DNA of 64,000 bases from an uncultured Pseudomonadota bacterium (GTDB taxonomy: Bacteria > Pseudomonadota > Alphaproteobacteria > JACZXZ01): assembly GCA_963749075.1 (NCBI GenBank), contig CAVVLJ010000004.1, forward strand, positions 448,001 through 512,000, given 5' to 3'. The translations under genes and the position numbers were made by a program. Of this stretch, positions 11,971-57,515 are shown one piece after another. Under the pieces are notes generated by a model, which made no database searches, was not told where the DNA came from, and saw only the letters and a program-made list of their open reading frames with translations. Each line of letters starts with the position of its first letter. Position 1 is the first letter of the stretch.

Positions 11971-12948
11971 ATGCTGCGCACGCTCGCCCGCCTGCTGAGC
12001 ATCGTGCCGGCCGTGGCATTGGCGGCCGCGGGGGCTGAGGCGGCCGAGCGGGTCGCCGCGGCGGTCGTCTTCGCCGTCGACGTCTCGGGCAGCGTCAATG
12101 CCGAGCGCTACGAGCTGCAGCGCGCCGGCATCGCCGGCGTCTTCGCCGATGCGGCGATCGCTGAGATCGTCGGCGACGGGCTCGCGGTCACGCTCATGGA
12201 GTGGTCGGACGGCCACGCGGTCTCGGTGCCCTGGACGATCCTCAGGAGTGCCGCGGACGCCGAGGCGCTGGCGCGCACCATCGCCCGGGTGCCGCGCGCC
12301 CCCGGCTACTCGACCGAGCTCTCGCTGGCCCTTCTCGCGGCGGCCGACCTCCTCGCCGCCTGTCCCTGCGAGGCGGCGAGCCGCATCATCGACGTCTCGG
12401 GCGACGGCTCGAACAACGGGCCCATCTCGACCCCGATCGCCCGCGACGAGGTGGTGGCGCGCGGCATCCGCATCAACGGGCTGCCCATCGTGACGCCGGC
12501 CGAGCCGGACCTCGCGCAATGGTACCGCGACAACGTGGTCGGCGGGGACGGCGGCTTCATGGAGGTGGCGAACGGCTACGAGGATTTCGCCCGCGCCATG
12601 CGGCGGAAGTTCCTCCTCGAGGTAGCAGCCCTGGGGAGCCGGCCGCGGCGGAGGGGACGGCCGAGAGTGCTGCGGCGAAGGAAATCGGTCGCCCGGAAGC
12701 GCCACGGGATTCGCGCAGATCCGAAGAGCAAGGGAGCCTCGGACCGGGTCCGGTGGGTCCTTCGAGGCGCTCGCTGCGCTCGCTCCCCCGGGCACTTCGT
12801 CCGGGGTGTTAAGTCCTTCCGCCACACACGGAATTGCCTTGTCCTGAGGAGCAACCCGAAAGGGTTGCGTCGCGAAGGACCCACGGCGGCGCTGCAATCC
12901 TCCTCGGTCCCTCGGGTAGTGGGTCATTTTGATTGGAATGCCGCTTGA
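11971..12948 (+). CDS. DUF1194 (vWA-like) exported protein with aberrant C-terminal read-through
   Basis: Signal peptide, AVDVSGSV MIDAS motif, IDVSGDGSNN, INGLPI, family-typical end ARAMRRKFLLEVA near 12630. The frame then continues through a repeat into the IS end. Confidence 0.85.
   Translation: MLRTLARLLSIVPAVALAAAGAEAAERVAAAVVFAVDVSGSVNAERYELQRAGIAGVFADAAIAEIVGDGLAVTLMEWSDGHAVSVPWTILRSAADAEALARTIARVPRAPGYSTELSLALLAAADLLAACPCEAASRIIDVSGDGSNNGPISTPIARDEVVARGIRINGLPIVTPAEPDLAQWYRDNVVGGDGGFMEVANGYEDFARAMRRKFLLEVAALGSRPRRRGRPRVLRRRKSVARKRHGIRADPKSKGASDRVRWVLRGARCARSPGHFVRGVKSFRHTRNCLVLRSNPKGLRREGPTAALQSSSVPRVVGHFDWNAA
12753..12884. repeat. REP/MITE-like element, family A copy 1
   Basis: 12-bp perfect terminal IR GTGGGTCCTTCG/CGAAGGACCCAC with internal hairpins. 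Homologous to the reverse complement of 48570-48651. Confidence 0.75.
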
Positions 12949-13472
12949 CCGCACTTTAGGCCACCGTTGGCCAAAACACACAGGTAGGTCTGGCCAGTTT
13001 GGGTGTTAATTACCCATGCAGCAGTAACGGGCGAACTCGGAATATTGCTCAATTGCCAGGCGCCTACTGGGGCTGTCGTTGATTCCGAAGTTGCGGCGAG
13101 CGTTTCTATTTTCGGCAGTGCCGCCTCAGCGCCCCGGTTGCCGACGAGCCACGAGACGGCGGGCTTGGTATCAGCATCGATCGCCGTCCAGGTCCATAGA
13201 TCGCCAACGCCTGCATCGCCCTTCATGTGCTCGGGCACGTTCTTTTGCTTCGCGTAGCAGAACGCCCAAATTTCATCGACCTGCACCCGCTTGCAGGTGA
13301 GGTTGCGAAGCGCCTTGTCCTGGTACTCTGCACAAGCTTGGCCGGCGTCCACGAGGAGCTTGGCAACCGTGTTCTTGCTCGCCCCCGTAAGCCGAGTGGT
13401 GGCACGGATGCTCATTCCCTCGACCATCATGCCGAGGATTTGACCGCGGCGAGCAATGGGAAGTTTGTTCAT
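12924..13472 (-). pseudogene. Truncated IS1-family-like DDE transposase fused to an unrelated C-terminus
   Basis: MNKLP...EGMSIRATTRLTGASKNTV (HTH), QVDEIWAF, WTWTAIDADTK, SWLVGNR. The sequence diverges after GAEAA (~13120) and the later catalytic D/E region is absent. Confidence 0.8.
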
Positions 13473-13563
13473 ATGATTGCCAATGTCGTGAGTTATCGTT
13501 GACAACACTGCAGCGTAGGGTTTACAATGTATCAAGTTAAGTTTCTAATAGGAGAACTTAAAG

Positions 13564-14661
13564 TTGGCAATCGAACGCCGTAGCCGTCAAAACCCAGCCA
13601 TTCGTGAGTTCATTCTAAGGAATGTCGCGGGCTATCCAGGCAGCATAGTGGCTAGGACCGCCAAGGAATTTTCTATATCTCGAACGGCAGTCAATAATTA
13701 CATGCGAAATTTTATAAATAACGGATTGATAACGGCACAAGGAAAGACACTTGCGCGACGGTATAGACTTAAGTCGCTTGTCGACATTACTGACATAGTT
13801 AAAATAACACCAGGTATCTTCGAGAACGATGTTTGGAGAGAAAAAATATTACCTCACATTAAGGGAGTTAATTCTAGCATAGTAGATATATGTCAATATG
13901 GCTTTACAGAAATGTTCAATAACGTCATTGACCACTCTCAAAGCCCCGACGCAATGATTACCTATACGCAGACGTATGCCGATATACGCATATTTGTAGT
14001 GGATAACGGGGTCGGAATTTTTGAAAAAATACAGAAATACTTTAATCTCACCGATCCCCGTAGCGCACTTCTTGAATTGGCCAAGGGAAAACTCACTTCG
14101 GATAAGGCTAGGCATACCGGGGAGGGTATATTCTTTACGTCTAGAATGTTTGACATGTTTATAATTGACTCTGGACACTTATCTTATCAAAGAACGCGTC
14201 GTGATGACGATGACTGGCTTATAGAGACGCACGATATAATAAAATATGTCAAAGGAACTGTAGTAAGCATGACGATTTCAACAAATGCGTCTTGGACGGC
14301 AAAAAATGTGTTCGATAAATATTCTGATTTTATTGAGGACGATGGGGTGTCTGCGTTTACCAAGACGCACGTGCCAATCCTGCTCGGCAGATATCCTGGC
14401 GAACAGCTCGTGTCTCGTTCACAGGCAAAAAGAATCTTGTCTAGGTTTGATCGATTTTCGGAGGTGATGCTTGATTTCAGAGGGGTGCAACAAATCGGCC
14501 AGCCATTTGCTGACGAAATTTTTAGGGTCTTTGCGAATGAGCACCCACAGGTCAAGGTCGTCGCGATAAATACGAGTTCAGACGTTCAGCGGATGATTGA
14601 ATATGCGCGAGCGAACAACAGGCCGGCTAATACCGCTGGAATCTCTGATAGCCGCGATTAG
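13564..14661 (+). CDS. wHTH + HATPase_c + STAS-like (DUF4325-type) protein, transposon passenger
   Basis: HTH AKEFSISRTAVNNYM, N-box EMFNNVIDHS, DNGVGIF, HTGEGIFF, GTVV, C-terminal SRSQAKR...LDFRGVQQIGQPFADEIF. Strongly AT-rich, TTG start with GGAGA RBS. Confidence 0.85.
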   Translation: MAIERRSRQNPAIREFILRNVAGYPGSIVARTAKEFSISRTAVNNYMRNFINNGLITAQGKTLARRYRLKSLVDITDIVKITPGIFENDVWREKILPHIKGVNSSIVDICQYGFTEMFNNVIDHSQSPDAMITYTQTYADIRIFVVDNGVGIFEKIQKYFNLTDPRSALLELAKGKLTSDKARHTGEGIFFTSRMFDMFIIDSGHLSYQRTRRDDDDWLIETHDIIKYVKGTVVSMTISTNASWTAKNVFDKYSDFIEDDGVSAFTKTHVPILLGRYPGEQLVSRSQAKRILSRFDRFSEVMLDFRGVQQIGQPFADEIFRVFANEHPQVKVVAINTSSDVQRMIEYARANNRPANTAGISDSRD

Positions 14662-14831: not shown

Positions 14832-14895
14832 GCTCGAAGTATGGCATGGCTGAGGTCGCTAGGCGATAGGGTCCAAAACTCAAACTGACCCACTA

Positions 14896-16801
14896 GTGCG
14901 CCAGGAAGCTGGCGTGATCCAGCCGGTGAAAGTCCGGCCCAGGTAAGGGGTAGCGCCCGCCTGGTAGCGAGTGTTGCGCTGTGGAAGGCAACGACCACGG
15001 CGAAGCGTACACAGCGATTGTGCGGGGTGGGCTATTGAGCCGCGTAAGCAGTAATGTCGGAGGGGCCGAGGCTTTTAGTGTAGCCGAAGGCAACATGTGC
15101 GGCGCCGCTATGCGAGGCGCCGTCGCCCTACCGAGGTCGAAGACCCCATCACGCACAAAGGGAGCCCGCCGGAACCTGGGAGATCCCACGTCCGGCCAGC
15201 GGCGACAAGCCGCCCTGGTCCGCATCGGGAAGGCGAGGAGCCGTAGCCGATGACGCACGGGCGCGGGAAGTCAGACTCCGCCATAGTAGCTGGGAAGCCG
15301 ACGAACAAGGCCGGGCAATCGGTTGCGGAGCCGGTGGAGCGAAGGGCGGAGGCCAAGGGGAATGCGGGCCAGCACAGCACGCGCCGGGCACAGGACCGGG
15401 AAAGCGTGTCCCATGCGCTGGATCGCATACGACAAGCGGCAAGGCAAAGGAAGAAGGAACGGTTCACCTCGCTCTTCCACCATATCACCATCAGCCTGCT
15501 CCGGCTGGCGTTCTTCGCGCTCAAGCGAGACGCCATGCCCGGCGTAGACGGGTTGACATGGCAGGACTACGAGGCAGACCTCGAGTGCAAGCTCGAGGAC
15601 CTGCACGCACGGGTCCGCCGGGGAGCGTATCGGGCACTGCCGTCCCGGCGACGGTACATACCGAAACCGGACGGCCGGCAGCGCCCGCTCGCCGTTGCCG
15701 CCCTCGAGGACAAGATCGTCCAACGGGCGACCATCGCGGTGCTGAACGCGATCTACGAGGAGGACTTCCTCGGGTTCTCGTATGGCTTCCGGCCACGGCG
15801 CGGCCAGCACGATGCGCTGGACGCACTGGCGGTCGGGCTCACCAGCAAGAAGGTGAACTACGTTCTCGATGCGGACATCCGGTCCTTTTTCGACGCGGTC
15901 GATCAAACATGGCTCGTCCGCTTCTTGGAGAACCGGATCAGTGACCCGCGTATCATCCGCCTGATCCAGAAATGGCTCAAGGCGGGCATCCTGGAAGACG
16001 GGGTCGTGACGGTGAGTGAGAGGGGGACGGGACAGGGCTCGGTGGCATCACCGCTCCTTGCCAACGTCTACCTGCACTACGTCTTCGACCTCTGGGCCGA
16101 GCGCTGGCGACGGCGCGAGGCACAGGGCGATATGATCATCGTGCGCTATGCGGACGACATCGTTGTCGGCTTCGAGCGTGAGGCCGACGCCCGACGCTTC
16201 TGGGAGGCGATGCGGGAGCGGTTGCAGGAGTTCTCGCTGACGCTGCATCCGGAAAAGACCCGCCTGATCGAGTTTGGCCGCCATGCCGCGGCCGAGCGCA
16301 AGCAGCGCGGGCTCGGTAAACCGGAAACCTTCAACTTCCTAGGCTTCACCTTCCTCTGCGGTAAATCGCGCCGCGGGAACTTCCTCCTCAAGCGGAAGAC
16401 CCGGCGTGACCGCATGGTGGCCAAGCTCAAGGAGGTAAAGGGCGAACTGCGGCGGCGGATGCATCAGCCCATCCCGGTGCAAGGGACGTGGCTGCGGCAG
16501 GTCGTCACCGGCTTCTTTGGCTATCACGCAGTGCCGACAAACTTCCCGGCACTTGCGGCCTTCCGGCGCCATGTCACCGGCCTCTGGCGGCGCACGCTCC
16601 GGCGGCGCAGCCAGAAGGACGGCTCGACCTGGGGACGGATCGAGAAGCTGGCCAACGACTTTCTCCCAAAACCCCGCATCCTTCACCCCTGGCCGAGCAA
16701 GCGCTTCGCCGTCAAACACCCGAGGTGGGAGCCGTATGCGGGAAATCCGCCCGTACGGATCTGTGCGGGGGGCGCCCAGTAATGGGCGTCCCTACCGCGA
16801 T
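14896..16801 (+). mobile_element. Intact group II intron (probably bacterial class E-like)
   Basis: 5' GTGCG at 14896. Domain V GAGCCGTATGCGGGAAATCCGCCCGTACGGATC (AGC triad 16730-16732). Domain VI ends CCTACCGCGAT. Removing the intron restores the IS TIR. Confidence 0.92.
15250..16782 (+). CDS. ltrA: Group II intron reverse transcriptase/maturase, no endonuclease domain
   Basis: PGVDG, YIPKPDGRQRPL, SYGFRP, DADIRSFFD, GTGQGSVASPLLANVYLH, RYADD, FNFLGF. The ORF runs into domain V. Confidence 0.95.
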   Translation: MTHGRGKSDSAIVAGKPTNKAGQSVAEPVERRAEAKGNAGQHSTRRAQDRESVSHALDRIRQAARQRKKERFTSLFHHITISLLRLAFFALKRDAMPGVDGLTWQDYEADLECKLEDLHARVRRGAYRALPSRRRYIPKPDGRQRPLAVAALEDKIVQRATIAVLNAIYEEDFLGFSYGFRPRRGQHDALDALAVGLTSKKVNYVLDADIRSFFDAVDQTWLVRFLENRISDPRIIRLIQKWLKAGILEDGVVTVSERGTGQGSVASPLLANVYLHYVFDLWAERWRRREAQGDMIIVRYADDIVVGFEREADARRFWEAMRERLQEFSLTLHPEKTRLIEFGRHAAAERKQRGLGKPETFNFLGFTFLCGKSRRGNFLLKRKTRRDRMVAKLKEVKGELRRRMHQPIPVQGTWLRQVVTGFFGYHAVPTNFPALAAFRRHVTGLWRRTLRRRSQKDGSTWGRIEKLANDFLPKPRILHPWPSKRFAVKHPRWEPYAGNPPVRICAGGAQ

Positions 16802-16893
16802 CCGTCCCTCCCTGCCGCTTGAACTGGCGGGCACTCCGGGCGCACACTATTTGATCGTAGCGAGCCTCGGTCTCGTTCGTGCGCGGGTCAGCG

Positions 16894-56790: not shown

Positions 56791-57515
56791 GTGCGCCGTG
56801 ACAAGGCGGCGCTTTCCAGTGGGTGCAAGGCCCACCCGGCAACCGCTCCAGCCGGAAGCAATCGGAGCAGTCATGGAGGTAACGAAATGACTGAAGCCTC
56901 TGATTAGCGTGTCACGAATTGGTGACAGCGCGAGTGTGCAGGCCGCAACGTGAGTGAACGCTGAGCAAGCCTCGAAAAGGACGATGCACAGGCCAACCCG
57001 ACGACCCTTTCGGGGAAGGCTGATACGGCTGGGAGATATGAGCGAAGACGACTTCCAGCTGCTGTGCCGGGGTAGTGGCGGCAGCATGTACACAAGGAAA
57101 GCGCACGCAACACGGGAAGCCCCGAGGCGTGGTCAGGGATGACCAACCGGACGCCCGCGAGGGACAGGCCGGGCGCCCTGGGGTGGCGGAGAGGTTCGTA
57201 GTACCGCTGAAGCCGGGTAACGCCGGTGGAGGGAAGGGACCTCAGTTCAAGACAGACGCAATACGCGGTGAAGGACCTGGAGATTGGGCAACCTATCAAC
57301 TCCGAAGAGTGTTCAGAAACTGCAGATGGTGTTGCACGCGAACTGTGAAGGCGTGAGGTCTTGTCCGAGAGCCGGATGCGGGAGATCCGCATGTCCGGTT
57401 CGATGAGCGGGGTGTGGAAACGGAGCCAGGGTCGAACCAGTGAGGCACCGCCAGACGAAAGGGGCGGCAACAGATATGTTCGGCCTACAGCCACCGCGCC
57501 ACACCTCGACTCTAC
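56791..57515 (+). mobile_element. ORF-less (internally deleted) group II intron, 725 nt
   Basis: 5' GTGCG, domain V GAGCCGGATGCGGGAGATCCGCATGTCCGGTTC (57369-57401), 3' end GACTCTAC. Only an IEP-like N-terminal remnant LGNLSTPKSVQKLQMVLHA (from 57284) remains. Confidence 0.9.

Follow-up and report, generated by a model that had tools for sequence, protein, structure and literature searches.

Several group II introns are established as residents of insertion sequences (ISs), for example RmInt1 in ISRm2011-2 and E.c.I4 in IS3-family transposase genes, and insertion of RmInt1 has been reported to block the spread of its host IS (PMC5894124; PMC3522654). The closest described case is RmInt2 of Sinorhizobium meliloti GR4, all seven copies of which lie, according to Martinez-Rodriguez et al. 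2014 (PMC4615759), in the inverted repeats (IRs) of ISRm17. Every ISRm17 element offers the intron a pair of insertion sites, one for each replication strand (PMC4615759). According to the authors, the intron thereby has twice as many targets, and one of them is always on the lagging-strand template (PMC4615759; also Toro et al. 2018, PMC5894124). A lagging-strand bias of RmInt2 was seen in retrohoming assays (PMC4615759). Here we describe a group II intron in a 64,000-nt stretch of DNA (the window, positions 448,001 to 512,000 of contig CAVVLJ010000004.1, assembly GCA_963749075.1) from an uncultured alphaproteobacterium of the GTDB lineage JACZXZ01. The intron splits a terminal inverted repeat (TIR) of an IS1-like element at a point 2 nt from the tip. 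Homing to IRs has a direct published precedent in RmInt2, and what is different here is the intron lineage and the IS family. The two ideas that an initial annotation of the window attached to this intron, two targets per element and an intron that is the parasite of a transposon, are those of the published account of RmInt2 and ISRm17 (PMC4615759, PMC5894124). We found no report of a group II intron homing to the TIR tips of the IS1 family, in a literature search that was thin in subscription journals. Our reading, to which we assign a probability of about 0.85, is that this is an endonuclease-less mobile group II intron of IIB type that has the outermost ~17 nt of IS1-like TIRs as its natural homing site, in full transposons, cargo-bearing derivatives, short forms resembling miniature inverted-repeat transposable elements (MITEs) and stray ends.

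Like RmInt2, the intron is bacterial, of IIB type and without an endonuclease, and has its copies in the IRs of one IS family. RmInt2 tolerates a four-base pairing between exon-binding site 2 (EBS2) and intron-binding site 2 (IBS2) (PMC4615759), and the present EBS2 also pairs over 4 nt. The two differ in that RmInt2 has an open reading frame (ORF) of class D, whereas the C-terminus of the present intron-encoded protein (IEP; ..KLANDFLPKPRILHPW..) departs from the class D motif quoted in PMC4615759, and in that ISRm17 is assigned to ISNCY/ISDol1 (PMC10194956) while the present host is IS1-like. RmInt2 requires the 3'-exon positions +2 and +7 (PMC4615759), whereas the conservation of the present site stops at +2 because the transposon ends there. 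RmInt2 is known from retrohoming assays and the present intron from sequence alone. RmInt1 and E.c.I4 share with it the use of multicopy ISs as homing sites, but they insert within the transposase gene instead of the terminal repeat, and so have one target per element, on one strand. The IStron, a group I intron fused to an IS200/605-type element, resembles our case in that a self-splicing intron is closely paired with the end of a DNA transposon (PMC4227781). It differs in being one fused element that splices the whole unit from host RNA, whereas the present intron is an independent invader that would splice out itself only. Class C group II introns, which are found behind terminators and in attC sites, are similar in that their target is a recurrent structured DNA motif and not a gene. 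Their recognition, however, relies on a stem-loop and on EBS1 and EBS3 alone, in contrast to the present intron, which has a covarying EBS2 and a ribozyme of another family (RF02005).

The intron and the transposon end that it splits

The intron begins with GTGCG at 14896 and ends with ...CCGCGAT at 16801, followed by CC, and these boundaries conform to the GUGYG/AY rule for mobile bacterial group II introns (GTGCG, ...GAT). The Rfam model RF02005 (group-II-D1D4-6, domains I-IV) matches positions 14929-15146 with 164 bits (E = 1.8e-47, gathering score 49), and domains V and VI are matched by RF00029 (Table 1). The joined exons read TCAAACTGACCCACTA/CC, where the slash marks the insertion point, and form the right TIR of the IS1-like element. 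This spliced 18-mer has a partner with one mismatch on the minus strand at 12915-12932. In the window we found two matches to the 18-mer against 0.02 expected, and none of 100 shuffles reached two. The partner TIR, together with a direct repeat outside both ends that matches in 7/8 positions, places the intron 2 nt short of the right tip in a TIR-bounded element of ~2.0 kb. In ISfinder the IS1 family has TIRs of the GGnnnTG type and target duplications of 8-9 bp; the host TIRs described here begin with GGTAGTG or GGTAATG, and the duplications are 8 bp long.

The left TIR had been put forward as an unoccupied potential target. It is indeed unoccupied, and it is counted among the 25 unoccupied candidate sites of the genome that have one mismatch, but it is a poorer target, with AATG at the IBS2 position in place of the ACTG of occupied sites.

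The IEP matches RVT_1 (E = 4.2e-37), the sole Pfam family at E<=0.01 over its 510 aa, and the group II reverse transcriptase/maturase model TIGR04416 (334 bits, cutoff 300). No endonuclease domain (D/En, HNH) was detected in it with Pfam at E<=0.01, a negative that rests on an absent match. The reverse transcriptase/maturase lies in domain IV, and its ORF is intact in all three full copies described below. The ORF extends across ribozyme domains V and VI (16727-16782) and ends in ..KHPRWEPYAGNPPVRICAGGAQ before the stop. Its last residues could also be aligned in most of 80 relatives of the intron, so that these bases act as catalytic RNA and as coding sequence at once. The IEP does not match the class D C-terminal motif LX3AX3PXLF[V/A]HW as quoted in PMC4615759; by eye, its C-terminus (..L-AND-F-LPK-P-R-I-L-H-P-W) keeps the class D spacing and has four of the fixed residues different. 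Introns on Klebsiella plasmids are 61% identical to the present one.

Recognition of the exons

The initial annotation proposed 15070-15085 as the EBS1 hairpin. This segment folds as a hairpin in the Rfam consensus structure, and its free fold (-13.6 kcal/mol, z -2.3) has an 8-nt loop, inside which lies UAGUG (15076-15080), complementary to CACUA at 14891-14895. A five-base complementarity is by itself weak evidence, and it is the covariation among relatives that lifts the assignment above chance. We assembled 80 loci with IEPs 72-81% identical in amino acids and located their boundaries, which gave 62 distinct intron/exon pairs. A perfect 5-mer complement to exon positions -5..-1 was present in the EBS1-equivalent loop in 44 of the 62 pairs, compared with 2.9% when exons were shuffled among introns. 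EBS2 lies directly past the conserved CGCG(A/U)AAG (CGCGAAAG), as it does in the relatives, and a 4-mer complement to exon positions -13..-7 occurred in this segment in 41/62 pairs (19% with shuffled exons). For EBS3, a single column of the alignment forms a Watson-Crick pair with exon +1 in 72 of 73 relatives, and the next best column reached 57%.

All three sites thus covary with the exon flanks across about 60-70 relatives, and all three predicted pairings (EBS1/IBS1, EBS2/IBS2 and EBS3/IBS3) can form at this locus. The target recognised by RNA lies wholly inside the TIR and ends one base short of its tip. The assignments of the initial annotation are therefore upheld by our data, both for the intron 2 nt from the TIR tip (boundaries, Rfam matches, partner TIR and target duplication) and for the EBS1 hairpin, where Rfam structure, free fold and covariation agree in placing UAGUG within the loop and not outside it.

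Copies in the genome and in a congener

The genome has three full copies of the intron, on the contigs that we call C4 (that of the window), C17 and C20, with 2-3 differences in 1906 nt, and a 57-nt stump of the intron 5' end on C16. All four follow a TIR-like end of the GGTAGTG type, with 5' exons ending in ..TCAAACTGACCCACTA (C4), ..TCAAACGGTGCCACTA (C17), ..CGAAACTGACCCACTA (C20) and ..TTCAAACCGAGACTA (C16), and the 3' exon starts with CC after each of the three full copies. The host on C20 is a complete 3.9-kb element with the TIRs GGTAATGGTACAGTTT... and GGTAGTGGGTCAGTTT..., which start GGTAATGG and GGTAGTGG, a perfect target duplication (8/8 bp, CGCGCGTC) and five cargo ORFs. Its 329-aa transposase matches DDE_Tnp_IS1 (PF03400) with 33.8 bits, above the Pfam cutoff of 24.1, and the NCBIfam IS1 model NF033558 with 71.4 bits, below the cutoff of 100. 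The hosts on C4 and C20 have just two short DNA segments in common, of 70% and 80% identity, while their introns differ at 3 of 1906 nt. It follows that each host acquired the intron separately. The transposase gene reads away from the intron-bearing end in the window and toward it in C20, so both kinds of end have been used. The C16 stump follows a TIR-like sequence without a recognisable element. In the 11 genomes of the family, this one included, one further copy was found, in a congener (G006) whose contig ends 84 nt into an identical intron preceded by ..AAATTCAAACTGAGACACTA.

Near-identical intron copies thus occur in unrelated hosts, and the intron appears to be of the IR-homing kind, with copies at either end in the inverted repeats of one IS family. 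Genome-wide there are three sites of the form ACTG-NNN-CACTA/C, two of them occupied, and the unoccupied one is a GGTAGTG-type end. Among 26 sites with one mismatch in IBS2, one is occupied. Four pairs of inverted GGTAGTG-type ends lie ~155-240 bp apart (C17:650597-650751, C20:455409-455563, C21:386429-386583 and C14:42173-42415); none carries the intron, and they look like MITE-like derivatives of the host transposon family. GC skew, taken as a guide to a bias toward the lagging-strand template, was +0.004 to +0.010 over 200 kb at the three full copies, a signal too weak and noisy to reveal such a bias and with a sign that flips in smaller windows. We also observed a small ORF, with the C-terminal end ..GGKARAAKLS..RR.EIA..AA..RW, adjoining a TIR in the C20 host (L091:1572-1796) and in an 808-bp metagenomic element described below (L095). 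It has no match to a Pfam or NCBIfam family and may be a conserved accessory gene of the transposon family.

Metagenomic contexts

A metagenome scan for the exact 25-nt EBS1 hairpin gave 90 stretches, 80 of which are analysed here as loci; in 66 of them the 5' exon is covered for 30 nt or more, and these represent 52 distinct distal contexts. Alignments of more than 250 nt link five pairs of contexts, leaving about 47 that are unrelated. At the junction 43 of the 52 are within three mismatches of ...AAACTGAGACACTA, and 42 end in CACTA. CC starts the 3' exon in 20 of the 21 distinct contexts with a readable 3' side. The sequence information in these contexts is limited to positions -17..+2.

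Among these loci, L095 is an 808-bp element with perfect 18-nt TIRs, and a partner TIR lies 94 bp off in L104 and 474 bp off in L156. In L126 and L164 the left and right TIR tips are nearly abutted right before the intron (GGTAGTGTCTCACTTAAACTGAGACACTA/), an arrangement that resembles a minimal element or the relic of a circle junction. Short remnants of IS1-like transposases occur 170-500 nt upstream in L094, L107 and L121 only, and in a subgroup of loci 80-100 nt of common host similarity stops exactly at the junction. Internally deleted intron copies (1064, 636 and 1240 nt between ends in L095, L103 and L137) occupy the same TIR position. In L130 another group II intron begins directly in the 3' flank (GTGCGCCGGGAGACC...), with a start also found in the 73%-identical intron of the congener G002, and the two introns of L130 are nested or in tandem.

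The specialisation on TIRs proposed in the initial annotation is supported by all three full copies and the stump, the one congener copy and the 43 of 52 metagenomic contexts. Copies that have the same EBS1 recur at the TIR-like site, and distant relatives are found elsewhere with EBSs matched to their own exons.

Alternative explanations

Some of our observations weigh against a homing site defined by transposon ends. They would suit an intron that recognises a ~17-nt motif as such, a motif that IS1-like TIRs happen to hold, without any specialisation on transposons. The conservation of positions -17..+2 is also expected from the RNA and protein footprint of the intron and is by itself no proof of a transposon tip. 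Upstream sequence of 300 nt or more is present in 44 of the 52 contexts, and a partner TIR was found in three of the 52, in addition to the one abutted-end pair; a motif scan gave three inverted matches against two control matches. No IS1 transposase was found among 74 of the 86 upstream ORFs of at least 130 aa, in the 25 of 111 families listed (the other 12 ORFs, those of L135 and L094, belong to near-duplicate contexts and were set aside); most ORFs upstream are ordinary genes or encode transposases of other families. In the genome itself, the C17 copy has no adjacent transposon and no partner TIR, and the ORFs beside its 5' exon look ordinary and are not transposase-like in tblastn comparisons. 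This site may be a stray end or a chance or ectopic look-alike, and by simple arithmetic chance alone would give the genome ~4 sites within three mismatches of the 18-mer. About ten TIR-like sites of the genome are also unoccupied. That every occupied site is a transposon end is therefore not proven, as the proof via a partner TIR and a target duplication can be given in this genome for two of the three full copies only, those with the C4 and C20 hosts. These two hosts are nevertheless complete TIR-bounded elements with target duplications, and they count against the motif-only explanation, as do L095, L104, L156 and the abutted ends of L126 and L164. So do the host similarity that ends exactly at the junction and the short transposase remnants upstream, and the motif itself is the tip consensus of many GGTAGTG-type ends in the genome. 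In the metagenomes the upstream flanks average about 880 nt, so the far end of elements of 2-4 kb could not show. We consider recognition of the motif alone improbable.

It is also conceivable that the intron has no homing of its own and is a passenger of a moving transposon, so that the common flanks are copies of one composite element. The target duplications do enclose the transposon together with the intron, as joint movement would also produce. The hosts, however, differ in length (2.0 vs 3.9 kb), in cargo and in the intron-bearing end, and are 70-80% identical over two short segments, against 99.8% for the introns. The metagenomes add 52 distinct upstream contexts, the transposase in the window is truncated, and the split TIR keeps just 2 nt at its outer end, all of which makes a passenger highly improbable. 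Least probable of all is a single retrotransposition event that landed in a TIR by chance. Five-base matches between EBS1 and IBS1 are common, CACTAC occurring 528 times on both strands of the genome, yet the recurrence of the same position in every copy examined in two genomes and in 43 of 52 metagenomic contexts refutes a chance ectopic insertion. The TIR tip as homing site is the supported core of our interpretation, with splicing and mobility as predictions from the sequence, for which the three copies that differ by 2-3 nt in unrelated hosts are indirect evidence.

A possible mechanism

The intron RNA could pair with the TIR via EBS2 (CAGU with ACUG), EBS1 (UAGUG with CACUA) and EBS3 (G with C at +1), and these three pairings would explain why the insertion is always 2 nt from the tip. 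Under the homing model a spliced RNA-protein particle would reverse-splice into a TIR and, having no nuclease, might be copied with a primer of the replication fork, the route demonstrated for RmInt1 and RmInt2. Since the TIR is inverted, each element would offer the site once per strand. The intron always faces outward and is therefore in sense in transcripts that exit the element. At the DNA level, an insert of 1.9 kb that separates the tip from the part of the TIR bound by transposase should disable that end. The intron would thereby immobilise its host element, which in the window already has a truncated transposase.

Other features of the window

Table 1. Features of the intron, its host element and a second intron (positions in the window; EBS, exon-binding site; IBS, intron-binding site; TIR, terminal inverted repeat).
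Feature	Position	Strand	Description
Left target-site duplication	12907-12914	.	GTCCCTCG; 7/8 positions match the right copy
Left TIR	12915-12932	+	GGTAGTGGGTCATTTTGA; unoccupied; 1 mismatch to the spliced right end
IS1-like transposase ORF, truncated	12924-13535	-	Helix-turn-helix and first part of the catalytic region left
Passenger gene, low GC	13564-14661	+	365 aa; reads toward the intron-bearing end
5' exon end, inner 16 nt of right TIR	14880-14895	+	IBS2 ACTG at 14884-14887; IBS1 CACTA at 14891-14895
Group II intron	14896-16801	+	1906 nt, GTGCG...GCGAT; RF02005 and RF00029 matches; 3 genome copies
EBS2 CAGU (predicted)	15049-15052	+	Pairs with ACUG at -12..-9
EBS1 hairpin GGCU-UUUAGUGU-AGCC (predicted)	15070-15085	+	EBS1 UAGUG at 15076-15080; Rfam consensus, free fold, covariation
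EBS3 G (predicted)	15139	+	Pairs with C at +1 (16802)
Intron-encoded reverse transcriptase/maturase (IEP)	15250-16782	+	510 aa; YADD at residue 300
Intron domains V and VI	16727-16801	+	RF00029, 50.3 bits; Rfam gathering score 40
3' exon start CC, outermost 2 nt of right TIR	16802-16803	+	Completes GGTAGTG on the other strand
Right target-site duplication	16804-16811	.	GTCCCTCC; directly after CC
Second group II intron	56791-57515	+	~725 nt; RF02003, 100 bits; RF00029, 43.6 bits

The transposase ORF of the window matches the IS1 family best (NF033558, 45.6 bits, below the cutoff of 100) and aligns just to residues 14-139 of the 329-aa transposase on C20, with 63% identity, so the host element in the window was defective already. 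The passenger gene has a STAS-like DUF4325 domain (PF14213, E = 6.5e-14) and a weak HATPase-like region, in which the HATPase families remain below their cutoffs. By eye, its N-terminus has a helix-turn-helix-like region and its GC content is much below that of the surroundings. Its candidacy as an anti-phage defence gene was rejected, as there was no PADLOC match. The second group II intron of the window holds just a remnant of an IEP N-terminus and is thus an ORF-less derivative. It lies at the centre of a palindrome, with GGTTGCGGGT before and CCCGCAACC after it.

Distant relatives

The flank GACCCACTA was found in none of the 80 relative loci. The EBS1, EBS2 and EBS3 of these relatives have changed to match their own exons, and we therefore regard them as retargeted lineages and not as counter-examples. 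The nearest relative, in Azospirillum canadense (81% IEP identity), has different EBSs and three copies at ..GAATTCGCCAGCAGTA/TC. At one Azospirillum locus (L008) this sequence forms the right TIR of a MITE-like element of ~130 bp that lies between ATTCTC repeats, and the intron is again inserted 2 nt from the tip. Inverted repeats of other elements hold three more groups of relatives. In one metagenome-assembled genome (L027, L029-L031) relatives lie at GTAGGGTGGGC/AAAATC, in the outer arm of nested palindromic units (..GATTTTGCCCACGCGGT..ACCGCGTGGGCAAAATC..), with the 5' exon on the outer side. At 6 of 63 insertion sites of relatives (L008, L016, L017, L027, L030 and L031) an inverted partner exceeded the 99th percentile set by 599 controls.

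This is an enrichment and not a rule, and a habit of the whole clade is not established by it. We accordingly regard it as doubtful that homing to transposon tips is heritable across the intron clade and not confined to one lineage. If it were, something beyond base pairing would have to steer retargeting toward ends, and a candidate would be the IEP, reading some trait of transposon ends or of intermediates of transposition or replication. The clade would then be a standing brake on DNA transposons in soil bacteria.

Implications

For annotation, our results are a warning that IS1-like ends can be split by 1.9 kb, and they explain contig breaks at such sites, as in the congener whose contig breaks off within the intron. 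Three RNA pairings within -12..+1 fully specify a short target, which ends at the last base of the transposon. This should make it an easy system for two questions, whether an end with such an insert is disabled and whether an inverted repeat overcomes the strand problem of nuclease-less introns. The value of the case lies chiefly in its breadth in soil metagenomes and in the clean geometry at the tip. Next to RmInt2, it is the second case, independent of the first and apparently widespread, in which a retroelement lives on the end repeats of DNA transposons, here with the site at the very tip.

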